Virus record (IMG/VR): IMGVR_UViG_2541047900_000001
Strand: one strand, 5' to 3'
Length of the DNA stretch: 10,306 bases
DNA from: a virus
Taxonomy: Monodnaviria; Loebvirae; Hofneiviricota; Faserviricetes; Tubulavirales; Inoviridae
Positions within the stretch are counted from its first letter, which is position 1. The number at the start of each line of letters is the position of its first letter. A program made the position numbers and the translations under genes. The notes below the pieces were generated by a model that had not been told where the DNA came from, did not search any database, and saw only the letters and a list, made by a program, of their open reading frames with translations. This document shows, piece by piece, positions 1-10,306 of this stretch.

Positions 1-14
1 ACATTATGCGCACC
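1..14 (-). other. Partial dif site (XerC arm plus first 3 bases of the central region), truncated by the window edge
   Basis: Bases 1-14 ACATTATGCGCACC are the exact reverse complement of GGTGCGCATAATGT, i.e. the XerC arm GGTGCGCATAA plus TGT of the central region of the E. coli-type 28-bp dif site. The rest of the site would lie left of the window. Confidence 0.75.
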
Positions 15-154
15 AATGGTAAGGATGGCAGAATCTGGCGGGAATCGTTGACACTGGCCGTCAACTGGCTACTATCGACAGTGATTCAAAATCATCCGTT
101 TCTCCAAACGAATCAGAATCAAATGTCTGTCAGCAGTAAGTGAACGGCCTGACC

Positions 155-403
155 TCACCAATCAGGCCTGTTCATCCAGTTAGTTGGTAAATCTGTACCT
201 GATACACGAGAATCAAACACCACTTCTTCAGTGCCATCACCATGATGCCGGATAATCTGGTAACCGGATTGCGGGTTCTGGCTCTCAGCTTCATAAGCAG
301 CCCGGAATGCTGGATCTTTGAGAAGCATCACTTTCAGCTCCTGATGTGTCATGAATTTTTCCATGATAAGCCCCGATGAATGCTGCCGCGCCGAATCAGC
401 CAT
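155..403 (-). CDS. Hypothetical small protein (82 aa) in the cargo position downstream of the secretin; start codon uncertain
   Basis: Intact ORF. No convincing Shine-Dalgarno at the annotated start, and internal Met codons (MEKFM..., MTHQELK...) are alternative starts. No family assigned. Confidence 0.4.
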   Translation of the reverse strand: MADSARQHSSGLIMEKFMTHQELKVMLLKDPAFRAAYEAESQNPQSGYQIIRHHGDGTEEVVFDSRVSGTDLPTNWMNRPDW

Positions 404-548
404 AACGCTGAAAATGGAAACTGTACGGCTTGGCCAACCCCGGACAGCAACAAAACAAGTTTTGTCACTGACCGGCGTTATCTTTCAAAACAGACAGTTA
501 ACGATTTTTTGTCTGGTGTTTATGCGTGAAATTTCGTGCGTACGAAAT

Positions 549-797
549 TCACCACCAATAAACAAACGGACGATGACTGACCGGAAAAGCAATGCCGTCA
601 GCATCATGACCACGCATTACCTGATTGAGAAGCCTTCTGACTTCACGACGCTCAGGCCTGGTCATCATCATATTGCGATACCAGGACGGCGATTTATCAA
701 ACCATCTGGCACAACTGGCAAAATGTGAACCTACACGACGATAAGACTTAAGGCGTCCACCGGGAAGTCGGTCACGCGCCTTATTTTTTACAGACAT
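549..797 (-). CDS. Hypothetical small basic protein (82 aa), cargo gene immediately downstream of the secretin
   Basis: ORF preceded on the minus strand by AGAGGA, 6 nt, ATG (strong Shine-Dalgarno). Arg/Lys-rich translation. No family recognised. Confidence 0.5.
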   Translation of the reverse strand: MSVKNKARDRLPGGRLKSYRRVGSHFASCARWFDKSPSWYRNMMMTRPERREVRRLLNQVMRGHDADGIAFPVSHRPFVYWW

Positions 798-885
798 AAT
801 AAATCCTCTAAGTAACTGAATACCTAGAAGATGTCGTACTGTTCATACCCCATAAAAGTTAACGCCATAATAAAAATCCATACAA

Positions 886-2130
886 TCAGTTCAGGTTGTC
901 CCGGAACAGTTCACCGCTCCTCGCGGCGCTGCGGGGCGTCGCCCTGCTCCGGTCAACCTTTCTGACCTGAAGCATCACCATAATATCAGTCTTGTTGCTT
1001 TCACTGGTACGGGAACCGAAGAAGCTCCAGCCGGAACTGGCCTTACTGTCTTTCTGTTCAGCAAGGCCACCAAGTAAAATAATATCACCATCTGCAAGGC
1101 TGACTTCGGTTGTTACATCACGCTTGATAAGGGTTGGCGAGTTATTGACGCCGGTTTCAGTGGTCACAAAGTTGGAAAGCTGCTGCTGAATCTTGAGATC
1201 CATTGTCCGACTTTTGATTGATGGCGTCACGTTAAACAAAACACCGCTGGAACGATATTCAACGGATTGCGTTGTCGTATTGTTATTCACCGTAACACTG
1301 CCCAGTACTGGCACATCAGAGCCGACTGAAAAAGACGCTGAGGCATTATTTTTTACCCGCAGTCGTGGCGCACTGACAACAGTAAAACGACTGTCGGTTT
1401 TCAGCAGATTGAAAATGGCATCAATGGAGCCGGTTCGAATATTGATAAAATTATCCAGTCCGGCAGCACCAACTGAAATATTGAATTTATCAGACAGAAT
1501 TTTAGCCGCTAAAAGAATGCCGGAGCCGTCAGACTGCGAGGTCTGAACCTCAAAAACATAACCAGAAACAACCACTTCATCACTCATCGTATCCAGCGAA
1601 GTGACCAGTGTTTTCAGGATGGCGATATCCTCTTTCGTACCATAATAAACCAGAATATCACCGGTTCGATTGATGTAGTTGCTTGCCCCTGATGAACCTT
1701 TTAGCGAATCGTCAGAAATCACGGCTCCACTGTTATTGAAGGAGCCTGAAACGTAGCCGCCAAGAATATCAGACAGGTAAGCAACAGAACGGTACTGAGG
1801 CGTATAAGTCCATGTATAACGTGGCTTAACCGGCTCTTTCGGCGTATAGGGCGCGATAAAATCAACACCCTTTTTCGTCCATATTCGAATGTTCATATTG
1901 CCAAGATAACGGGTTACAAATTCCCGTTCATCAATATCAGGTGTTAACCTGAATGTAATCATTCGTTCATCATTAACAAGCTGTGGATCTAGCATATACG
2001 GGACTTTAAGCACCTCACTGTAAATAAGAGAAATAGCCTCCGGTAGCTTGACTTTATTTAATTCAAGCTCTGACCCTGCGAAAGCACATGAAGAAAATAG
2101 TAGCGTTAATGCGAGTAAAATCTTTTTCAT
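886..2130 (-). CDS. Filamentous-phage pIV-type outer-membrane secretin
   Basis: 414 aa with N-terminal signal peptide MKKILLALTLLFSSCAFA. C-terminal half has the secretin-like pattern (VVSAPRL..., SVG..VP..., ILLGGL) resembling Ff gene IV protein. Its ATG overlaps the upstream gene's TAA by 1 nt (2130). Confidence 0.88.
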   Translation of the reverse strand: MKKILLALTLLFSSCAFAGSELELNKVKLPEAISLIYSEVLKVPYMLDPQLVNDERMITFRLTPDIDEREFVTRYLGNMNIRIWTKKGVDFIAPYTPKEPVKPRYTWTYTPQYRSVAYLSDILGGYVSGSFNNSGAVISDDSLKGSSGASNYINRTGDILVYYGTKEDIAILKTLVTSLDTMSDEVVVSGYVFEVQTSQSDGSGILLAAKILSDKFNISVGAAGLDNFINIRTGSIDAIFNLLKTDSRFTVVSAPRLRVKNNASASFSVGSDVPVLGSVTVNNNTTTQSVEYRSSGVLFNVTPSIKSRTMDLKIQQQLSNFVTTETGVNNSPTLIKRDVTTEVSLADGDIILLGGLAEQKDSKASSGWSFFGSRTSESNKTDIMVMLQVRKVDRSRATPRSAARSGELFRDNLN

Positions 2131-3155
2131 TATTTTTTCCCCGTATAAAGCGTCACACGCTCACCATCAATAATTCCGCTCATCAACATCCCTTTGTAAT
2201 TAAAACTGGATGCAGGAACGGCACGCAAAACACCGGCACCGTTAACAAGAATCACAAACGCCCTGCCTTCACTGGTCATTCTCCCTGATATACGCCACTC
2301 GGTTGAAAGTGGCGGTTCAGCTGGTTCTGAGGGAGTATCTGGTGCTGGAGTAGCAGCGGAAGAACGAAACATGGCCGCATCACGTACATCTGTTGTAGTC
2401 AAATCTGGCGAGGGATCGCTTCGGCCAAACGTGCTGAAAAATGAGTAAATCAGCCAGCCTGACCCGATAAACATCAATGGAAAAAGCACAAGAAAGAACC
2501 TGACTTTGCCAGAATTCCAGATGCTCTGGCGTTTATCTGTCTGCTTTTCATTACCGTTATTTCCTTCATAACTTTTGTAAAGTTCAAAAATATCAGGGTT
2601 ATATTTATTGCGATAACTGGTGACGAGGTTGCTTTTATAGATTTTGTGGCCTGAATATACGTCAATGCAATAATGATTATTCAGGCCCAACGCTTTCAGC
2701 TTGCGCATCCGGTAAGTTGTTTCTATTTTGTCTTTCAGAAAGCGAGCAATATTAGAAAGTGACTGATTTACAATAACCAAATCACAGCTAATACCCGTTT
2801 CAGGGTGCGTAAAATGACGATGTTCAGCAATAAATGATTTCTTCTCAGCCGTCATATCCTTATCGCTACCGAAGATTCGCCATGCTTCATCAATAACAAT
2901 TAAATCACCAAACTGGCAAAAGCTCCCTTCCCCACCTTTAAAAGGAAAGAAATCTGCTTTAAGCACATCATCATTATCCACAACAATAATTTCTCCCGTT
3001 GCATCAGGATAACGTTCGGTGATTTTATCTTTTTGTAAACCATAAATGTTCGTCACAACTCTCCGGCCGCTGGTAAATGCCGGAATAATGACATTGTAAA
3101 CGGCTTCATAACTTTTTCCTGAGCCGGGTATGCCAATATATGCAGAAATAGCCAT
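2130..3155 (-). CDS. pI / Zot-family phage assembly ATPase
   Basis: 341 aa; Walker A P-loop GIPGSGKS at residues 8-15; central hydrophobic helix (FFLVLFPLMFIGSGWLIYSFF); Pro/Ser/Thr-rich C-terminal region. Position directly upstream of the secretin as in Ff, CTX-phi (zot). Confidence 0.88.
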   Translation of the reverse strand: MAISAYIGIPGSGKSYEAVYNVIIPAFTSGRRVVTNIYGLQKDKITERYPDATGEIIVVDNDDVLKADFFPFKGGEGSFCQFGDLIVIDEAWRIFGSDKDMTAEKKSFIAEHRHFTHPETGISCDLVIVNQSLSNIARFLKDKIETTYRMRKLKALGLNNHYCIDVYSGHKIYKSNLVTSYRNKYNPDIFELYKSYEGNNGNEKQTDKRQSIWNSGKVRFFLVLFPLMFIGSGWLIYSFFSTFGRSDPSPDLTTTDVRDAAMFRSSAATPAPDTPSEPAEPPLSTEWRISGRMTSEGRAFVILVNGAGVLRAVPASSFNYKGMLMSGIIDGERVTLYTGKK

Positions 3156-3158
3156 AAC

Positions 3159-3446
3159 TCACCCTATAACAGGAATACGTCGAATAATAAAACGAGTAGC
3201 CATTGCGGAGATAATCATACTAATCCCCTGTGGTAATTTACTCAGGTTAATGAAGTACCAGAATCCGTCTGATAAATTGGCAAACAGCGATGAGAGATTG
3301 CTTGAATCTGGCAGTAACTCAACAAGGATTTCAACGAAGCCCTGGACTACAAAATACAGCGCAAAGAATACGACGAATTTAATAATCAATGACCGGAATA
3401 CAAAACCTAACAAAGTATTTAATGCACTAATCAGAATCCCAAACAT
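3159..3446 (-). CDS. pVI-like minor coat / membrane protein
   Basis: 95 aa, strongly hydrophobic; AAGGAG Shine-Dalgarno 7 nt upstream of ATG; lies between the pIII-like and pI genes as gene VI does in Ff phages. Confidence 0.6.
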   Translation of the reverse strand: MFGILISALNTLLGFVFRSLIIKFVVFFALYFVVQGFVEILVELLPDSSNLSSLFANLSDGFWYFINLSKLPQGISMIISAMATRFIIRRIPVIG

Positions 3447-3458
3447 AGTTGCACTCCT

Positions 3459-5171
3459 TTAGGCACTCAGAATAATACGGAGCGCAACAAATCCCCATAT
3501 AATCAGAAATATGGTTTCTACGGCGCTTCTGTTCTGCTCAATTAACGGACAATGGGAGTCAATTCTGTACTGGTGATTAAACACGCTGAATTCAACAACG
3601 GGGCAGGATGCTGAACGAGAGCCGATGTTAAATTCGTTTGTAAAAGGCAACAAGTTAATAATTGGCGTTAAAATATCTCTTGCCGTTGGCGTTTCTTCAA
3701 GCTCAGGCTCTTTTACACCGGGATCTTCTCCCAAATCTATATTGCCATTATTTCCAGTGTCAGATCCTGAGTTGTTATTAATGGTAATATCAATATTGAC
3801 GTCAGCCCCTGCACTGTCAGATACAGGTGAAAGCATATCTAATAACGTTGGAGATAGCCTAAGTTCCGACATCGCAGAAGTTACTTCAGCCGGTGAAACC
3901 TCTTTAAACGGTAAGCCGTTATAATCGGCATTAACGGCAGCTTCAGACCACAGCTCGTTAATCATGTCGGCAAGAAGTGCTGGCGATACACTAACACTAT
4001 CAAGATACTCCAGATAATCAATCATGGACTCAATATTTCCGGCCTCCAGTACTTCCGTCATGGCTTTATATTTGGTATTGGTCCAGATAGTAAGCTCACT
4101 CTTTTCATCAATATCTTTTGCGGTGTAATCCTCTTTTTCAGGAACGGCGCAAATCGTCGAATATCCACCATTTGACTGATTAGTCGTTTTACAAGGCGTG
4201 TTGTGATACTGATATTGCTTTCCTGCTGTTAAATAAGCAACGCTGTAATACATGGGAAGCCCTGCTACATTTTCATACATGGGAATACCTGCGGGAAATG
4301 AAGATGCGGCCGGGTTGCTATACAAGTGTGTAATCTCAGGTATTTCATAAAATGAGGAAGGATAAGTAAACTTATAATTCTGTTCAGTAAAGGATACATC
4401 TCCATTACTGTTGACAACTTTATTCGTCACAGTGCGTTCAAAATTCGTTAGTGTTTCAGTATAAGTACGCGAGTTATAGTCATTAAGATAATTTCTGGCA
4501 ATTTCAGTTGGATTATCACCATAGTAATAAATTAGCTCTTTCGAATCCTGATAATAATAAAGTGCATTATCTGGCGTGGAATATCCTGTTTCAACACCTA
4601 CAACTGGAGAACCCGCATCCACATTATTACGACTAACATGAAGGATTACCGGACTTAATTCCTGTGGTTCAAAATTAACGGTTATCGTCTTACTTTCACC
4701 ACTTTGACCACTGTACGTTACTTCATATAAATTATCGGAAATCTTTTTACCGTTAGTCATTACCATTACCGAGCCGTCAGATGAACTCAAAGAAGACGGA
4801 ACAAAAGATGATACAGCAGCAGCAATACCCGCCCACGTTGCAACACCGCTCATTTTGTATGATGAGGCAGCAGGCAAGTATTCGGCAGCATTAGCCGCAG
4901 CGCGGCCAACAAAAACACGGGTTGCTGTAAGCTGTGATGCCGTATAAATCGCATCATTGGCAGCAAAGCGACGAACAAGCACCCGGCCAACGACTTTAGG
5001 AATAACAGCCCGCGCAGCCACTGCTGCAATTGCTGGTACAAATGAATATGAATATCGGGGAAAGGAAACCCAGAGAAAGGAAAAAATAAAGGAATAAACC
5101 GTCAGCCTCTTAGCCCAAGAATAACGACATAAGCTGAGACGATCCCCCATAAAAGGGAACCCAATTTCCAT
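3459..5171 (-). CDS. pIII-like adsorption (receptor-binding) minor coat protein
   Basis: 570 aa; GGAG Shine-Dalgarno 7 nt upstream of the ATG at 5171; Gly/Ser/Asn-rich linker (NNNSGSDTGNNGN); C-terminal hydrophobic anchor (TIFLIIWGFVALRIIL); position after the major coat gene. The exact N-terminus is uncertain. Confidence 0.65.
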   Translation of the reverse strand: MEIGFPFMGDRLSLCRYSWAKRLTVYSFIFSFLWVSFPRYSYSFVPAIAAVAARAVIPKVVGRVLVRRFAANDAIYTASQLTATRVFVGRAAANAAEYLPAASSYKMSGVATWAGIAAAVSSFVPSSLSSSDGSVMVMTNGKKISDNLYEVTYSGQSGESKTITVNFEPQELSPVILHVSRNNVDAGSPVVGVETGYSTPDNALYYYQDSKELIYYYGDNPTEIARNYLNDYNSRTYTETLTNFERTVTNKVVNSNGDVSFTEQNYKFTYPSSFYEIPEITHLYSNPAASSFPAGIPMYENVAGLPMYYSVAYLTAGKQYQYHNTPCKTTNQSNGGYSTICAVPEKEDYTAKDIDEKSELTIWTNTKYKAMTEVLEAGNIESMIDYLEYLDSVSVSPALLADMINELWSEAAVNADYNGLPFKEVSPAEVTSAMSELRLSPTLLDMLSPVSDSAGADVNIDITINNNSGSDTGNNGNIDLGEDPGVKEPELEETPTARDILTPIINLLPFTNEFNIGSRSASCPVVEFSVFNHQYRIDSHCPLIEQNRSAVETIFLIIWGFVALRIILSA

Positions 5172-5195
5172 AATTCAATCTCCATAATAACCTCA

Positions 5196-5222
5196 AGTAA
5201 AACGGGCGATATTGCATCGCCC
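5196..5222 (-). terminator. Putative rho-independent terminator between the major coat and pIII-like genes
   Basis: Inverted repeat GGGCGAT (5204-5210) / ATCGCCC (5216-5222) with 5-nt loop, followed on the minus strand by GTTTTAC. Ff phages carry a terminator at the same place after gene VIII. Confidence 0.5.
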
Positions 5223-5235
5223 ATGAATAATGAAT

Positions 5236-5469
5236 TTATGCGGATTTAACGGTACGCAATACCCAGCGAACGCCAGCGACACCGGCATAAAGTGTTACCA
5301 GTGAAGCAGCAACGGCCATAATCGCAACCAGAACTGTACTGAAATCAATGCTGTTCGTCAGCGGCGATAAATCAACACCACTTGATGCCGCTCCTTCTGC
5401 AGCGAAAGTCGCGCCAGAAACAGCCATTAATGCAGGTACAGCCAGAAAATTAACGTTTTTTTTAAACAT
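5236..5469 (-). CDS. pVIII-type major coat protein precursor
   Basis: 77 aa; signal peptide MFKKNVNFLAVPALMAVSGATFA then a ~54-aa mature peptide with acidic N-terminus, hydrophobic core and basic C-terminus (RWVLRTVKSA). GGAGA Shine-Dalgarno 7 nt upstream. Confidence 0.85.
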   Translation of the reverse strand: MFKKNVNFLAVPALMAVSGATFAAEGAASSGVDLSPLTNSIDFSTVLVAIMAVAASLVTLYAGVAGVRWVLRTVKSA

Positions 5470-5503
5470 AACTCTATCTCCATTACATTTTAAAGGTTCG
5501 CAT

Positions 5504-5755
5504 TCAAGCAGTACGAACCATCTTTATTACCTGTCCCACACCTACAGAAAAAAGCCAGAGCAGCAGGACAGAGCCAAAACCTAATGTCCAGTAATTTCCC
5601 ATTGCAGAATAATCAATTTGATGAAATGGTTCAGAACGTACCATTATTGCCTGACATTCTTTTGCATTGTTCGCATTACATAAATAACCTTCAATACGGT
5701 AACCATTTTCAGGAATATGATTATCAAACTGAATATCGAAACCTGATGTATCCAT
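5504..5755 (-). CDS. Small protein with C-terminal transmembrane helix; possible minor coat/assembly protein (pVII/pIX analogue)
   Basis: 83 aa; C-terminal hydrophobic segment LGFGSVLLLWLFSVGVGQVI; start 2 nt after the upstream gene's stop (TGATTATG), suggesting translational coupling; sits between the ssDNA-binding and major coat genes. Confidence 0.45.
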   Translation of the reverse strand: MDTSGFDIQFDNHIPENGYRIEGYLCNANNAKECQAIMVRSEPFHQIDYSAMGNYWTLGFGSVLLLWLFSVGVGQVIKMVRTA

Positions 5756-5757
5756 AA

Positions 5758-6075
5758 TCAGCCTTTTATTTCAGTAATGCCGCCATCTGATGAAATGTTA
5801 TAAGTTACTCCTTCCCTCCCCTCCATTGACCAGACGCGAACATATACAGGTATCTGGACTAACTTACCGATAAAATTATTTGCCTGATTCATTACACCGG
5901 CATTAACAAGAGCCTGAGATACACGAATAATAATCTGGTCTTGCTTAGTGCCGCCAAAACCATCAGGAATCTCTAAGCCAACACCAATTTCATTATAGTA
6001 TCCCTGACCATTGACCTTATTACGCTGGCGAGCACCAAGCATTTTACCTTTTACAAAAAGACCATAATTAGACAT
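5758..6075 (-). CDS. Probable ssDNA-binding protein (gene V analogue)
   Basis: 105 aa; AAGGAG Shine-Dalgarno; immediately downstream of the replication gene, where gene V lies in inoviruses. Assigned mainly by synteny and size. Confidence 0.55.
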   Translation of the reverse strand: MSNYGLFVKGKMLGARQRNKVNGQGYYNEIGVGLEIPDGFGGTKQDQIIIRVSQALVNAGVMNQANNFIGKLVQIPVYVRVWSMEGREGVTYNISSDGGITEIKG

Positions 6076-6086
6076 ATCACTCTCCT

Positions 6087-7139
6087 TTAATGCCAGTTAC
6101 TGGCATGTGAAATACGGTTATAATCGAAAATTAAACCTTTCTCATAAACCCATGATGGAATTTTGGCTGGTTTGGCTTCAAGAGTACGAACCAACGGAAC
6201 AACGTTATTAGAATCCGGTGACTCACAATAAAAGTTAATATCTATTCCGAAAGAAAGTAATTCTTTACGGTGTCGGTAGAATGTAGGTTTCGGTAACATC
6301 TCTTTCATGTTCGCGCCCTGCTTCCACAATAAATATGTAGACTGTATTTTTCTTGGGAGATTAATTATTTTTTCATCAGTTAATATAGTATTTTGATTCA
6401 TTTCTATTCTCCCTACATAGTCAGAGAATAATTTATTGGGCGTCTCAATATTCCAGCTATTACCAAGCGTAAGATTCAAATCAATTAATTCAGTTGTTCT
6501 TAATGTTAATTCAATGCGTAATTTATCTTTTGACCAGTCCAGTAAACCAGCTTTAACGAATTCGTCTGCCATCTGGTGCCCTTTTTTGCCAGATGTATGC
6601 TCATCATATTTTGAATAAAATTTCAGGCTCCAACGACGGGAGTTTTTCCCTAAGTAAACAGTGCCACCTTTACCACAGGCGCGACCGTGGCGAGTTTTAG
6701 CTTTAAATTCTGCGGCATATAACCATGCGCGGACATTTTCTAATGTTGACAATGAATACATGTAATTGATATCGATGCGCGAGATCTTAAATTGCCCTTC
6801 CATGACCTGCCGATAGGATGGTAGATCATGAGGAATATGCAGTAATGCCAATATTCTGGCGTAAGCTGTTAACACCAACCCTTGCAAATCGTCGGAACCG
6901 ATAACAGAGTGACCTTGCAAAAACTTTGATGGATTACCGTCAATGTAGAGATGTGTTGCCCGACCTTCACCATCAGATCCAACAGACCTTACTTTCATTG
7001 TGGACTCATGCGAACCGCGAACGGTCAACCGTTTTACTGTTTCCCACTCCACTGCACCGTCAGCATCGACGCTGACGACACTACCAGCCGGTAACGGTCG
7101 GTGTGTGCAAGGCAGGATTCCGGTAAACCAGTCGATCAT
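6087..7139 (-). CDS. Rolling-circle replication initiation protein (gene II / RstA-like)
   Basis: 350 aa; first gene of the minus-strand module, divergent from the HTH repressor as rstA is from rstR in CTX-phi. Size and position typical of inovirus replication initiators. Confidence 0.8.
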   Translation of the reverse strand: MIDWFTGILPCTHRPLPAGSVVSVDADGAVEWETVKRLTVRGSHESTMKVRSVGSDGEGRATHLYIDGNPSKFLQGHSVIGSDDLQGLVLTAYARILALLHIPHDLPSYRQVMEGQFKISRIDINYMYSLSTLENVRAWLYAAEFKAKTRHGRACGKGGTVYLGKNSRRWSLKFYSKYDEHTSGKKGHQMADEFVKAGLLDWSKDKLRIELTLRTTELIDLNLTLGNSWNIETPNKLFSDYVGRIEMNQNTILTDEKIINLPRKIQSTYLLWKQGANMKEMLPKPTFYRHRKELLSFGIDINFYCESPDSNNVVPLVRTLEAKPAKIPSWVYEKGLIFDYNRISHASNWH

Positions 7140-7277
7140 AAGTAGTCACACCCATCAAAATATGTGTCAATAGTCATTTGTGAGCAGATTGAATGGTCAC
7201 AATGTAATATGCTCAGATCTGACAGTCAATACATTTGCAATGTTTAAATTGTCAAAAATGAGCATCAAATCTAACTA
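7140..7277. promoter_or_regulatory. Divergent control region between replication gene and repressor (copy 1); probable promoters, operators and possibly the origin
   Basis: 138-bp AT-rich spacer between divergent genes. Contains a perfect 10-bp palindrome TCAGATCTGA (7213..7222), an inverted repeat TGTGA...TCACA (7180..7200) and three TGTCAA-like motifs (7165-7171, 7224-7230, 7250-7256). Exact -35/-10 elements could not be assigned. Confidence 0.55.
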
Positions 7278-7712
7278 TTGATGAAGTTATGGCGGACAAA
7301 CAGAGAGCAGAACGGTATCAAAAAGGTAATTCTGGAACACTCGACTTATGAAGAACTGGCCGAGAAGACTGGCATTAGCGTGAGTACGCTGGTCAGGATA
7401 GCGTCCGGCAAAACTGAACCTAAATTCAGTGACATCATTCAGATAGCTAAAATTACGGGTGCAGACTTAAACACCTTAGCTTATGGCTATGCTCTTGATG
7501 TTAAAGAAGAAGCTACCGAGCGGAAGCTAATCACTTCTGCGGATGGATATACTGATGAAGAAACCACTAACGCACATAATTTCATCGTGTGGAACATCAG
7601 GACACTGGAAAAACAAGATATTCTGGCACTCGCAAGGCAGGTTTCTGCCTTAAGTTCATACACTTACAGTACTAAAATGTTTATGAAAAAAGCGGTGTCT
7701 GGAGAAGAGTAA
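7278..7712 (+). CDS. HTH (XRE/Cro-C1-type) repressor, copy 1 with altered 5' end; possibly non-functional
   Basis: 144 aa, identical to copy 2 from IKKVILEH onward. Lacks the 46-bp segment carrying copy 2's Shine-Dalgarno and start, begins at TTG/ATG without a recognisable ribosome-binding site, and an extra G changes the first ~12 residues. Confidence 0.45.
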   Translation: MMKLWRTNREQNGIKKVILEHSTYEELAEKTGISVSTLVRIASGKTEPKFSDIIQIAKITGADLNTLAYGYALDVKEEATERKLITSADGYTDEETTNAHNFIVWNIRTLEKQDILALARQVSALSSYTYSTKMFMKKAVSGEE

Positions 7713-7726
7713 AAGGATTAACAGTC

Positions 7727-7879
7727 TCAGGAATGAGACAAACGTGCAGTATTACCGCGAACGGTCAACCGTTTTACTGTTTCCCACTCCACTGCACCGT
7801 CAGCATCGACGCTGACGACACTACCAGCCGGTAACGGTCGGTGTGTGCAAGGCAGGATTCCGGTAAACCAGTCGATCAT
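7727..7879 (-). pseudogene. Truncated duplicate of the replication gene 5' end (42 native codons plus 8 out-of-frame codons)
   Basis: 7754..7879 matches 7014..7139 (rep codons 1-42); reading continues into the reverse complement of the repressor copy 1 3' region and stops after 8 codons. Confidence 0.8.
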
Positions 7880-8050
7880 AAGTAGTCACACCCATCAAAA
7901 TATGTGTCAATAGTCATTTGTGAGCAGATTGAATGGTCACAATGTAATATGCTCAGATCTGACAGTCAATACATTTGCAATGTTTAAATTGTCAAAAATG
8001 AGCATCAAATCTAACTATTGAAAAACCACTGTTAAGATGGAGCCAAGTAG
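7880..8050. promoter_or_regulatory. Divergent control region, copy 2, with extra 46-bp segment providing the repressor ribosome-binding site and start
   Basis: Same motifs as copy 1 (palindrome TCAGATCTGA at 7953..7962), plus 8021..8066 containing GGAG about 9 nt upstream of the ATG at 8051. Confidence 0.55.
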
Positions 8051-8497
8051 ATGGGCAACAATGAGCATGAAGTTATGGCGGACAAACAGAGAGCAGAACG
8101 TATCAAAAAGGTAATTCTGGAACACTCGACTTATGAAGAACTGGCCGAGAAGACTGGCATTAGCGTGAGTACGCTGGTCAGGATAGCGTCCGGCAAAACT
8201 GAACCTAAATTCAGTGACATCATTCAGATAGCTAAAATTACGGGTGCAGACTTAAACACCTTAGCTTATGGCTATGCTCTTGATGTTAAAGAAGAAGCTA
8301 CCGAGCGGAAGCTAATCACTTCTGCGGATGGATATACTGATGAAGAAACCACTAACGCACATAATTTCATCGTGTGGAACATCAGGACACTGGAAAAACA
8401 AGATATTCTGGCACTCGCAAGGCAGGTTTCTGCCTTAAGTTCATACACTTACAGTACTAAAATGTTTATGAAAAAAGCGGTGTCTGGAGAAGAGTAA
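8051..8497 (+). CDS. HTH (XRE/Cro-C1-type) transcriptional repressor, intact copy
   Basis: 148 aa; helix-turn-helix segment STYEELAEKTGISVSTLVRIASGKTEPKFSDIIQIAKITGADL matches the XRE pattern; GGAG Shine-Dalgarno; divergent from the replication gene as rstR is in CTX-phi. Confidence 0.85.
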   Translation: MGNNEHEVMADKQRAERIKKVILEHSTYEELAEKTGISVSTLVRIASGKTEPKFSDIIQIAKITGADLNTLAYGYALDVKEEATERKLITSADGYTDEETTNAHNFIVWNIRTLEKQDILALARQVSALSSYTYSTKMFMKKAVSGEE

Positions 8498-8525
8498 AAG
8501 GATTAACAGTCTCAGGAATGAGACA

Positions 8526-8554
8526 AACGTGCAGTATTACCAACACTGCACGTT
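8526..8554 (+). terminator. Putative rho-independent terminator of the repressor gene
   Basis: Perfect 10-bp inverted repeat AACGTGCAGT (8526-8535) / ACTGCACGTT (8545-8554), 9-nt loop, then CTTTATTGTG. Only the left half is present after copy 1 (7741-7750). Confidence 0.6.
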
Positions 8555-8593
8555 CTTTATTGTGCGAATTTTGAACAATGAAAAAGGATCAAA

Positions 8594-9016
8594 ATGATGA
8601 GTAGAAATAACGAAACAAGCGGCGTTGAATTGGTTGTCGTGGGCGTATTTGCTTTCTGTCTGGCAGTTGTTGCCTGGTTAATGAAAACTTTCGATGTTGA
8701 ATGGCAAACAGCACTGGAAACTGCGCCTGGCCTGATAGTCTGGTTGCTTGTTGTCGGTGCGGGGATCTTTTTCGGGATCAAAATGGAAACAGGTCTTGTT
8801 CGCTGGGGTGCCCCACTGGCGATCGCCCTTCTGATTCCGGTATTCAAACCAATTCTTAAGGAAGCTGCCGGAGTACGTGAAATGGGTGGGTTGGTTTTCG
8901 ATGATATGGTTTCGTGGTACGGAACTGGCTGGGGAATGTCTCTGATGTTTTTTGGAATTCTTATCGTCGGATACGGTCTGCTTTATTGGTGGCACCGAAG
9001 AAATTCATATTATTGA
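8594..9016 (+). CDS. Small integral membrane protein (about 4 predicted transmembrane helices), function unknown
   Basis: 140 aa; AGGA Shine-Dalgarno 5 nt upstream of the ATG; four hydrophobic segments (VVVGVFAFCLAVVAWLM, LIVWLLVVGAGIFFGI, APLAIALLIPVF, MSLMFFGILIVGYGLLYWW). Antisense ORFs 8557..8847 and 8678..8995 judged to be shadows. Confidence 0.7.
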   Translation: MMSRNNETSGVELVVVGVFAFCLAVVAWLMKTFDVEWQTALETAPGLIVWLLVVGAGIFFGIKMETGLVRWGAPLAIALLIPVFKPILKEAAGVREMGGLVFDDMVSWYGTGWGMSLMFFGILIVGYGLLYWWHRRNSYY

Positions 9017-9018
9017 TA

Positions 9019-9049
9019 TAATATTACCCTAGGTTAACTAGGGTAATAT
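9019..9049. promoter_or_regulatory. Near-perfect 31-bp palindrome (13-bp arms, 5-nt spacer): terminator or protein-binding site
   Basis: AATATTACCCTAG (9019-9031), GTTAA, CTAGGGTAATATT (9037-9049); lies 3 nt after the stop of the membrane-protein gene, at the transition into AT-rich DNA. Confidence 0.55.
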
Positions 9050-9117
9050 TCAAATACTAAATTTTTACATTTTATCTGACCATCTTTGATCAGTTAAAAC
9101 ACTGGATTTTAAGTAAA

Positions 9118-10221
9118 ATGAGAAAAAAGATGCCGGACTTGATTACTGATACATTGAAAGTAGTTACTTCTTTTTTTGTGGCATTAGTCCTCAATAAGTT
9201 TTTATCTATATTTAGGAAAAGACAACTTTACTTATCCTGTTGGAACTCCTTGAGTAAAACCTCAATATCTGACAATGCAATAGTAATAAATGCATCAGTA
9301 TTTAATAAAGGTAAGGATAAAGAAAAAAATGTAGAAATAAAAGTCCCAAACGGTATGTCTTGTACTGTAATTGCAAGTGATCATGATGCAACTACCGAAG
9401 GTTCTTTTGTGAAGATAGATAGAATATTAGCAAATAAAAAAATATCCATGGTGCTCTTGATTGAAGGAACAAGAGTTCTTGATAAAAGTACCATGCCTTC
9501 CATAAGATCAGAAGATACTGACGGGAAAACATACCTTTCAAAAGACTCAGTGCCACCGAGTGCAGGTTCTTTTATTTTAGGCGGTGCTATTTTTGCTGCA
9601 TTTTTCAGTTATATGGTCATCAGTATCCAAACAGAAGACAACCCTCTCGCGGGCCCATTGAAAGCATATAACTACATGATTTATAACAATATGTACAATT
9701 CTGGACTTTCGATTAATCCTATAGGTAATGGACTGATAACTGAAAATTACAATCTAAGAGCGAATGAATACCCTATTGAAATAATAGATGCCAAGATAGA
9801 AAAAAATCAAATAATGTTCAAATTTAGAATAATTAATAAAACATCAGAAGCACTGAAAGTTTCAGGCGGATGGAGAATATATAAAAACTTTCAATATATT
9901 TCCGAACATGTTGATACATTTGATTATAAAGATGAAAAGAAAAGAGAAGAAGAAGAAATAAGGGTGTATAAGAAATACAATGTGGAATTTGTTAATGATA
10001 ATGGATATCTTATGGAAAAACCGAAAGAAAGGGTTGAAGTTCCTGCAAATTCAGTTGGCTATATTATAATAAACAGAAAATACTCTCCAAGCATTACTTA
10101 TAATGACCTAAACATCGAGTTTAACTTTAGTGGTGGTTCAGGTGAAATATACCAAGAAGCAGATATGCTTTTTACAGCTAAGAATTCTAATATAAGCAGT
10201 ACTATATTAGACAAGAAATAA
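9118..10221 (+). CDS. AT-rich hypothetical membrane protein with two predicted transmembrane helices and large Lys/Asn/Ile/Tyr-rich domains; function unknown
   Basis: 367 aa uninterrupted ORF in visibly AT-rich DNA, unlike the rest of the window. Hydrophobic helices near the N-terminus (VVTSFFVALVLNKFLSIF) and mid-protein (FILGGAIFAAFFSYMVISI). Weak Shine-Dalgarno; a second in-frame ATG 4 codons downstream is an alternative start. Confidence 0.7.
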   Translation: MRKKMPDLITDTLKVVTSFFVALVLNKFLSIFRKRQLYLSCWNSLSKTSISDNAIVINASVFNKGKDKEKNVEIKVPNGMSCTVIASDHDATTEGSFVKIDRILANKKISMVLLIEGTRVLDKSTMPSIRSEDTDGKTYLSKDSVPPSAGSFILGGAIFAAFFSYMVISIQTEDNPLAGPLKAYNYMIYNNMYNSGLSINPIGNGLITENYNLRANEYPIEIIDAKIEKNQIMFKFRIINKTSEALKVSGGWRIYKNFQYISEHVDTFDYKDEKKREEEEIRVYKKYNVEFVNDNGYLMEKPKERVEVPANSVGYIIINRKYSPSITYNDLNIEFNFSGGSGEIYQEADMLFTAKNSNISSTILDKK

Positions 10222-10227
10222 TTAATT

Positions 10228-10254
10228 GGTTCGCACAATGACGTTATGCTAAAG
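10228..10254 (+). other. Degenerate dif-like sequence (candidate Xer recombination site) with a 5-bp central region
   Basis: GGTTCGCACAA TGACG TTATGCTAAAG versus dif GGTGCGCATAA TGTATA TTATGTTAAAT: 9/11 matches in each arm, central region one base short. Orientation is inverted relative to the dif fragment at 1-14. Confidence 0.4.
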
Positions 10255-10290
10255 AGGCCGCTGCGGAGGCCATTTTCGCAGCGGCCTTTT
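10255..10290 (+). terminator. Putative rho-independent terminator downstream of the AT-rich gene
   Basis: GC-rich inverted repeat AGGCCGCTGCG (10255-10265) / CGCAGCGGCCT (10277-10287) followed by TTT; flanked by a further inverted pair CGTTATG / CATAACG. Confidence 0.55.
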
Positions 10291-10306
10291 CAACATAACG
10301 AGTCGC

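Follow-up and report, generated by a model that had tools for sequence, protein, structure and literature searches.

The element described here belongs with two filamentous phages that are already in the literature. These are YpfΦ, a Yersinia pestis filamentous phage reportedly described by Derbise et al. in 2007, and CUS-1, a prophage of Escherichia coli O18:K1:H7 said to have been described by Gonzalez et al. in 2002. YpfΦ forms 1,200-nm filaments with circular single-stranded DNA (ssDNA) and integrates at dif, and no particles are produced when its replication, morphogenesis, or secretion genes are disrupted (PMC4266046). We analyzed the IMG/VR record IMGVR_UViG_2541047900_000001, a stretch of inovirus DNA of 10,306 nucleotides (nt) that we call the window. 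We are highly confident that positions 886-7139 are the replication, structural, and assembly core of an inovirus of the CUS-1/YpfΦ type, and that the window as a whole is a single prophage unit inserted at dif in the chromosome. The content of the core is already known: it re-identifies the CUS-1/YpfΦ phage family that was described in 2002-2007.

Compared with YpfΦ as found in Y. pestis NCTC5923, the DNA is 99.1% identical over window positions 1-7756 and 99.5% identical over 7754-8577. The eight core proteins match those of YpfΦ over their full length at 97.4-100% identity, and if the repressor and the two dif-proximal open reading frames (ORFs) are included as well, the range is 97-100%. 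Both elements lie at dif and restore an intact dif next to pIV, and both have inverted XerC/XerD-like sites. They differ in that window 8578-10214, with ORFs of 140 and 367 amino acids, stands in place of YPO2271 and YPO2272 of YpfΦ, and in that a 741-nt internal duplication is a feature of the window. For CUS-1, we compared the window with E. coli NU14 (an O18:K1:H7 strain) and not with the original CUS-1 sequence; by this comparison, the host species, the dif locus, and the core are the same. The eight core proteins are 99-100% identical to those of the tandem prophages of NU14. The NU14 prophage also has the same layout, including the 140-amino-acid ORF (96% identical), but its last cargo ORF is another allele (29% identical). 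A link to CUS-1 and YpfΦ had been guessed in an earlier first-pass annotation of the window, and these comparisons bear it out.

Relatives of the window are widespread in E. coli: 657 of 5,426 complete genomes have a match, and at least 80% of the window is covered in 87 of them. When we scanned species-representative genomes with pI, the only one that encodes a close relative was that of Y. pestis. A megablast search of 50,697 phage records with the whole window as query gave no match, which means that the lineage is absent from that collection rather than that it is new. Outside the lineage, the closest deposited relatives of pI are from uncultured gut and saliva inoviruses (40-46% identity).

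Eight uninterrupted ORFs run along the minus strand from 7139 to 886, at the coordinates given in the first-pass annotation. The features of the core are as follows (values after family names are E-values).

7139 to 6087, minus strand: Rep, a rolling-circle initiator of the gII type; 350 amino acids.
6401 (ATG) to 6087, minus strand: gene X, nested in rep; 104 amino acids, starting at Rep Met247, with GGGAG 6 nt upstream.
6075 to 5758, minus strand: gV-like (G5P-like) protein, predicted to bind ssDNA; 105 amino acids; PF17426 1e-52.
5755 to 5504, minus strand: orf83, an 83-amino-acid protein in the gVII/gIX position; phrog_3679 1e-32 (no function annotated).
5469 to 5236, minus strand: major coat protein; 77 amino acids; phrog_2186 5.9e-29.
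5224 to 5202, minus strand: Rho-independent terminator past the coat gene; 10-bp stem with 5 G-C pairs, then a T-run.
5171 to 3459, minus strand: pIII-like putative adsorption protein (PuvA of CUS-1); 570 amino acids; phrog_3942 4.5e-253 (no function annotated).
3446 to 3159, minus strand: pVI-like minor coat protein; 95 amino acids; DUF2523 1e-20; phrog_974 6.6e-30.
3155 to 2130, minus strand: assembly ATPase of the pI/Zot family; 341 amino acids; PF05707 1.9e-26; phrog_197 7e-94.
2130 to 886, minus strand: pIV-type secretin, the virion export channel; 414 amino acids; PF00263 1.3e-24; phrog_1012 ("protein IV of M13") 8e-138.

This order, II(X)-V-small-VIII-III-VI-I-IV, is that of the Ff phages (M13, f1, and fd), which also share the terminator past gene VIII and the pI/pIV junction. 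In most genes, however, there is no detectable sequence similarity to Ff. Furthermore, the Ff phages do not integrate, have no repressor, and encode pVII and pIX, which we did not identify in the window element. The first-pass annotation had called a complete and intact core module in classic order, and all eight ORFs are indeed full length and in the Ff order. It had also named a function for each protein. Our searches of protein profiles (Pfam, PHROGs, and NCBIfam) support these names for all but the pIII-like protein and orf83, whose roles come from position and topology; the three decisive assignments (Rep, pI/Zot, and the pIV secretin) are all backed by profile matches.

Rep matches Phage_CRI (PF05144, 1e-73), G2P_X_C (PF05155, 4e-34), and TIGR01629 rep_II_X (5e-77; 259.6 bits, as compared to a cutoff of 29). 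It is 58% identical to gII of phage I2-2, and the start methionine of gene X is conserved: the internal ATG in the window lines up with the start that is annotated for gene X in I2-2. The gV-like protein is 42% identical to gene V of I2-2. A PDB sequence search with it gave no match, but when we modeled its structure with AlphaFold (12 homologues; mean pLDDT, the model's per-residue confidence score, of 87.7), the top 50 PDB matches were all bacterial single-stranded DNA-binding proteins (SSBs) with the oligonucleotide-binding (OB) fold (E around 2e-5). The model supports a predicted ssDNA-binding protein with an SSB-like OB fold.

The major coat protein, as read from its sequence, has a 23-amino-acid signal peptide that ends in TFA (just before AEG), followed by an acidic N-terminus, a hydrophobic core, and a basic C-terminus; its match to Pfam's Phage_Coat_B (1.6e-3, 18.8 bits) is under the cutoff of 23.5. 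The pVI-like protein also matches the Ace-like family phrog_306. pI scores 93.2 bits against PF05707 (cutoff 20.3) and has a Walker A motif (GIPGSGKS) at residue 8, a Walker B motif (LIVIDE) at residue 85, and one transmembrane segment at residues 218-241. We looked for an internal start in pI, which would give an analogue of pXI, and did not locate one. pIV matches the structure of f1 pIV (7ofh, 1e-10).

Public annotations imply a quite different identity for the element, namely a small plasmid or a bacterial secretion locus. RefSeq uses the labels "plasmid pMTY14759_untypable1" and "type II secretion system protein GspD," and the secretin domain does match GspD structures. But pIV scores just 103.9 bits against the GspD equivalog, as compared to a cutoff of 351.35, and on this ground we rejected the RefSeq product name. 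The secretin is also embedded in a full inovirus set (major coat, pVI, pI, and the gII/X Rep), there are no other type II secretion genes in the element, and the "plasmid" is a circularized phage genome joined at attP. We therefore regard a plasmid or a secretion locus as extremely unlikely. The misannotation recurs in RefSeq across the family, with pIV given as "GspD" and pIII begun at GTG 5021.

The first-pass annotation had also flagged the Zot-like ATPase and the secretin as functions of interest for virulence. FCIGRL is the active peptide of Vibrio cholerae Zot and lies near its C-terminus. This motif is not present in pI, and the secretin falls far short of GspD (104 versus 351 bits), so the virulence interest is not supported. 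pI and pIV are ordinary proteins of virion assembly and export.

The pIII-like protein and orf83 have no match in Pfam, NCBIfam, or PDB (PDB by sequence), so we assigned their roles from position, topology, and the literature on PuvA. A review of YpfΦ states that puvA of CUS-1 encodes a receptor-binding virion protein (PMC4266046), and we equate puvA with the pIII-like ORF by its position. The N-terminal leader and the C-terminal ~170 residues, which include a membrane anchor, are common to this protein and the protein in the pIII position of Inovirus D_HF5_61. The most likely start is ATG 5171, which has GGAG 8 nt upstream. We rejected the RefSeq start (GTG 5021) because the leader encoded from ATG 5171 (MEIGFPF...FSFIF) is conserved in D_HF5_61, which is a distant relative. 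A hydrophobic ORF of 27 amino acids just past the terminator (5185 to 5102) was considered as an analogue of pVII or pIX and rejected because it overlaps the conserved pIII leader out of frame. The position of these tip proteins is taken only by orf83, which has a hydrophobic, probably transmembrane, segment near its C-terminus (residues 55-81). D_HF5_61 has an ORF of similar size in that position.

The first-pass annotation had described tight junctions, good ribosome-binding sites, and a terminator after the coat gene, and this was right in part. Gaps of 1-3 nt or overlaps occur at three of the seven junctions: 2 nt between gV and orf83, 3 nt between pVI and pI, and a one-base overlap of pI and pIV at 2130, which had been correctly seen (TAATG, with TAA at 2132-2130 and ATG at 2130-2128). 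The other gaps are wider, at 11 nt (rep to gV, with AGGAG), 34 nt (orf83 to coat, with GGAG), 64 nt (coat to pIII, which holds the terminator), and 12 nt (pIII to pVI, with AAGGAG). Strong Shine-Dalgarno sequences (AGGAG, GGAG, or AAGGAG) precede four of the eight genes (gV, coat, pIII, and pVI), and those of rep, orf83, pI, and pIV are weak. The terminator was the top-ranked terminator-like site on the minus strand, and its RNA is predicted to fold stably (-15.5 kcal/mol, z -2.8), in agreement with the earlier call. D_HF5_61, whose pI is 46% identical and whose proteins are ~33-46% identical to those of the window, has the same gene order, a tight junction between gV and the next gene, overlapping pI and pIV, and a hairpin with a T-run past the coat gene. 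This conservation supports the view that the gene order, the tight junctions, and the terminator are functional rather than accidental.

The ends of the window show how the element sits in the chromosome.

1 to 14, no strand assigned: end of the prophage at the crossover in dif, made up of ACA and the XerC-binding arm TTATGCGCACC; dif is completed by bases of the left flank.
10229 to 10306, minus strand: attP region; its inverted dif-like sites, together with window 1-14, are predicted to form a forked hairpin.

A perfect E. coli dif, ATTTAACATAATATACATTATGCGCACC, straddles the left end of the window in chromosome NZ_CM132638.1, where flanking bases complete it; the site is split into ATTTAACATAATATACA and TTATGCGCACC. 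In other words, an intact dif is regenerated on one side of the integrated element. At its right end, the window finishes in a hybrid site, after which the 14-mer with its XerC arm occurs again, and hipA is near the integration site. The ends of the window fall exactly at the XerC crossover in dif, and the whole window is one prophage unit. On the packaged strand (the minus strand of the window), the attP junction is predicted to form a forked hairpin (-31 kcal/mol, z -7.1) in which an XerC-arm stem and an XerD-arm stem are parted by an asymmetric internal loop. Because the crossover sits at the XerC arm, we infer an exchange by XerC only. By analogy, integration would be driven by XerC and irreversible, and progeny would need tandem copies or an episome. 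The hairpin is an attP of the CTXφ type, as was proposed in a review of YpfΦ (PMC4266046).

E. coli TUM14759 has both of these configurations in its public records. A 9,565-bp circular record (NZ_CP128883.1) joins the end of the window directly to its start, and this circle corresponds to the window minus the internal duplication. The chromosome of the same strain (NZ_CP128877.1) has three tandem copies at dif, in keeping with progeny that come from tandem copies or an episome. These chromosomal copies are annotated with many frameshifts, which are probably assembly noise. In addition, a CUS-1-type copy (88% of the window, 99.4% identity) occurs in two places on a 248-kb plasmid of Klebsiella pneumoniae (NZ_CP132684.1), where it is presumably integrated at an Xer site of the plasmid and not at a chromosomal dif.

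Upstream of rep, the window has a candidate replication origin, two copies of a repressor gene, and a tandem duplication that was missed in the first-pass annotation.

8509 to 8554, minus strand: candidate plus-strand origin, made up of a 13-bp hairpin (8526-8554; loop GGT) and then a second small hairpin (8509-8524).
8051 to 8497, plus strand: intact helix-turn-helix (HTH) repressor of the Cro/CI type (RstR analogue); HTH_3 1.6e-9; phrog_3557 4e-74.
7281 to 7712, plus strand: repressor copy 1, which has lost the wild-type ribosome-binding site and ATG but stays in frame from a new ATG.
7014 to 7756, no strand assigned: duplication copy 1, which aligns to 7754-8541 with zero mismatches except for a 46-nt deletion and a 1-nt insertion.
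7754 to 7879, minus strand: truncated rep' (126 nt from the start of the gene), joined to the 3' half of the hairpin at the origin.
7050 to 7057 and 7790 to 7797, minus strand: in-rep octamer GTGCAGTG, just upstream of both breakpoints.

The candidate origin reads AACGTGCAGTGTT-GGT-AATACTGCACGTT (window 8554 to 8526; DNA fold z -5.4), and 34 of 37 bases are identical to the intergenic region of I2-2, although the flanks are unrelated. An alignment of the sequence immediately before rep with its counterpart at I2-2 gII showed nothing convincing; the conserved element sits further upstream. Among 33 IMG/VR inovirus contigs with this hairpin, each has exactly one copy, always on the strand that encodes Rep (33 of 33). 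A Rep homologue (56-100% identity) lies 395-672 nt downstream of the hairpin, with the exception of contig L012 (1,417 nt), which carries a duplication. The linkage of hairpin and Rep holds regardless of the morphogenesis module or the type of repressor. The second small hairpin shows compensatory changes (GTCTC/GAGAC versus GTACC/GGTAC). The UPΦ phages have a gII and gV that are reported to be over 85% identical to those of YpfΦ (PMC7307601). From these sequence comparisons, positions 8509-8554 are likely to be the plus-strand origin of the gII/X Rep family that is common to YpfΦ, CUS-1, UPΦ, and I2-2.

The duplication is a 741-nt tandem repeat (window 7014-7756 and 7754-8541) that overlaps the start of rep. 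The repeated segment runs from the first 126 nt of this gene through the divergent promoter region and the repressor gene to 44 nt past the repressor. The junction has a microhomology of 3 nt (GGT on the phage strand), and this is the loop of the 13-bp origin hairpin. Three further elements have equivalent duplications. All four share one endpoint, within the 3-nt loop of the hairpin, and have their second endpoint 105 or 126 nt into rep.

This window: breakpoint A, ...GTTCGC-GGT-AATACTGCAC (126 nt of rep); CUS-type, with the window-type repressor.
L041, E. coli LSN03-016011/A: breakpoint A; UPΦ-type structural genes, with a different regulator and rep allele.
L012, IMG/VR contig: breakpoint B, ...GGGAAAC-AGT-AATACTGCAC (105 nt of rep); another repressor type, ~40% identical.
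L042, E. coli AB_24_S34: breakpoint B; CUS-type, with the window-type repressor and both copies intact.

Could this be an assembly artefact, or a chance slip at a microhomology that has nothing to do with replication? The microhomology is only 3 nt. Also, such duplications are rare: the window's exact junction was not found in IMG/VR or in JGI metagenomes, and among 5,426 complete E. coli genomes each junction (A and B) occurs once, with that of the window in a different phage lineage. Nevertheless, L012, L041, and L042 share the architecture, and each breakpoint turns up in two lineages with different rep alleles and repressor types. The two copies in the window have also diverged since, by the 46-nt deletion and the 1-nt insertion, which is not expected of an assembly artefact. 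We consider an artefact or a chance slip to be quite improbable.

A specific alternative is that the duplication is the footprint of the Rep nickase. Breakpoints A and B lie 13-34 nt downstream of GTGCAGTG, which is an exact copy, within rep, of the octamer in the left arm of the origin. This octamer occurs three times in the window, always on the phage strand, as compared to 0.28 times expected by chance, and it may serve as a pseudo-origin or be bound by Rep. Rolling-circle synthesis that passed the origin and was closed at the pseudo-origin would add the segment from origin to pseudo-site as a tandem repeat. The two microhomologies (GGT and GTAA) have G-T in common, which implies a crossover at one of the three bonds in G^G^T^A. 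Illegitimate recombination at the nick site by the gene II protein of M13 was reportedly described by Michel and Ehrlich in 1986, and by analogy, the pattern of the duplications matches that type of event. Our reading is illegitimate recombination mediated by Rep, which would mark the plus-strand origin. Under the nickase explanation, Rep would have run past the origin and closed at GTGCAGTG followed by G-T, such events would have arisen repeatedly, at two fixed breakpoints, in at least four elements that belong to two phage lineages, the nick would lie within G^G^T^A, and the product would be a rep'-repressor cassette with a full and a half origin. We would give this explanation about an even chance of being correct. 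If it is true, the cassette could provide a second dose of repressor or a minicircle of ~0.75 kb, loosely like RS1 beside CTXφ. Possible consequences of the duplication include an extra repressor dose, a minicircle, or nothing.

The two repressor genes have fared differently. The intact gene at 8051-8497 encodes a protein that is 100% identical to that of YpfΦ. Copy 1, which is beside the intact rep, has the 46-nt deletion, which takes the Shine-Dalgarno sequence and the ATG of the repressor, and the 1-nt insertion 33 nt later (window 7281-7314 versus 8021-8100). The net effect is in frame, and translation from the new ATG at 7281 could yield an HTH protein whose N-terminus is altered; the changes may be decay or a selected variant. 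As a separate observation, the HTH region of the repressor (7304-7440 and 8089-8224; ~135 bp) has a counterpart, at 92-93% identity, in an HTH gene that is carried by several hundred conjugative plasmids of E. coli, Salmonella, and Shigella; most of the listed examples are ~41 kb in size.

Several points weigh against our reading of the window as an inovirus core in an integrated prophage. The pIII-like protein and orf83 lack family matches, and no homologue of pVII or pIX was identified in the element. The regulatory region beside the intact rep is a rearranged copy with a damaged repressor gene; the distal repressor copy is wild type, yet it faces just the 126-nt stub of rep. The circular record could be a collapse of the tandem array by the assembler rather than a replicative form, so as evidence of activity it is supportive but not conclusive. 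With an attP of the CTX type, a solitary prophage should not yield virions, by analogy, and the window covers one unit only. Finally, this particular copy is known from its sequence alone.

Some of this would also fit a cryptic, domesticated remnant, in which the host keeps the genes (for example, for fitness during infection) and phage is no longer made. The attP type implies no excision, and the regulatory region has a truncated rep' and an altered repressor copy. The element is also common in the chromosomes of extraintestinal pathogenic E. coli, and the literature reports just modest fitness effects. We consider such a remnant unlikely, in view of eight full-length core ORFs that are 97-100% identical to those of a phage that makes particles (YpfΦ), the existence of a circular record of unit length, and the tandem arrays in NU14, Y. 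pestis, and TUM14759, which are the configuration needed for production. The first-pass annotation had suggested a potentially active phage. Activity of this copy is plausible, but with an attP of the CTXφ type, which does not excise, it would depend on the copy number at dif.

The remaining ORFs lie at the two ends of the prophage.

155 to 352, minus strand: 65-amino-acid accessory ORF adjoining dif; 98.5% identical to YpfΦ (tblastn).
549 to 797, minus strand: 82-amino-acid accessory ORF; 100% identical to YpfΦ.
8594 to 10221, plus strand: variable cargo, an ORF of 140 amino acids and a low-GC ORF of 367 amino acids; absent from YpfΦ.

The 65-amino-acid ORF has no match in Pfam or PADLOC, and the 82-amino-acid ORF has no credible family match in either. 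The cargo is in the position of a variable slot that is described in the literature on YpfΦ (PMC4266046). The 367-amino-acid ORF (9118-10221) has a GC content of ~30% and is 29% identical to its counterpart in the same slot in NU14. Neither cargo ORF gave anything credible in PADLOC, Pfam, or NCBIfam; the one match in these searches, to JetB (E 0.004, 13.8 bits), was dismissed. In E. coli AB_24_S34, the slot of the 367-amino-acid ORF holds an "abortive infection family protein," and in another match (H24) there is a PD-(D/E)XK nuclease among the genes of this phage. The cargo slot may hold defense genes.

Beyond its own family, the element resembles different phages in different modules. I2-2 (Lineavirus) shares the replication module, which includes gII, gV, the start of gene X, and the origin-like hairpin. 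In contrast, the morphogenesis genes of I2-2 and UPΦ are unrelated or distant (pIV is ~27-30% identical), and I2-2 does not integrate. CTXφ has a divergent HTH repressor, a Zot-family pI, an attP that folds from a single strand for XerC at dif, and tandem prophage arrays, all of which are like the window. However, CTXφ is not known to encode a pIV and uses a host secretin, it carries ctxAB as cargo, and its pI has low identity to that of the window: with tblastn, Vibrio phages gave weak matches only (for example, VGJφ at 25%).

From what is known of Ff, CTXφ, and YpfΦ, we propose the following life cycle. The HTH repressor would control the divergent rep promoter. Rep would nick the plus strand at the hairpin downstream of the repressor gene and begin rolling-circle replication. 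Gene X and the gV-like protein with its OB fold would then shift replication toward single strands, which the gV-like protein would coat. The terminator past the coat gene would keep coat transcripts abundant relative to those of the downstream genes. The filament would be extruded by way of pI (inner membrane) and the pIV secretin (outer membrane), with the pIII-like protein and pVI as its caps. The two inverted dif-like sites of the packaged strand would fold into a hairpin that XerC recombines with dif. Since such an insertion would be unable to excise, new genomes would come from tandem copies or an episome.

The core finding itself adds little. The family is common in extraintestinal pathogenic E. 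coli, yet the RefSeq labels remain "GspD," "hypothetical protein," and "plasmid," and the useful output is a corrected gene map, with the pIII start, gene X, the terminator, attP, and the candidate origin. Only the duplications at the origin loop may be of interest to specialists, and their mechanism has a known precedent. These recurrent duplications locate, by sequence comparison and nothing else, the probable nick site of the Rep family of YpfΦ, CUS-1, UPΦ, and I2-2. The probable nick site is relevant to how prophages that do not excise generate progeny.

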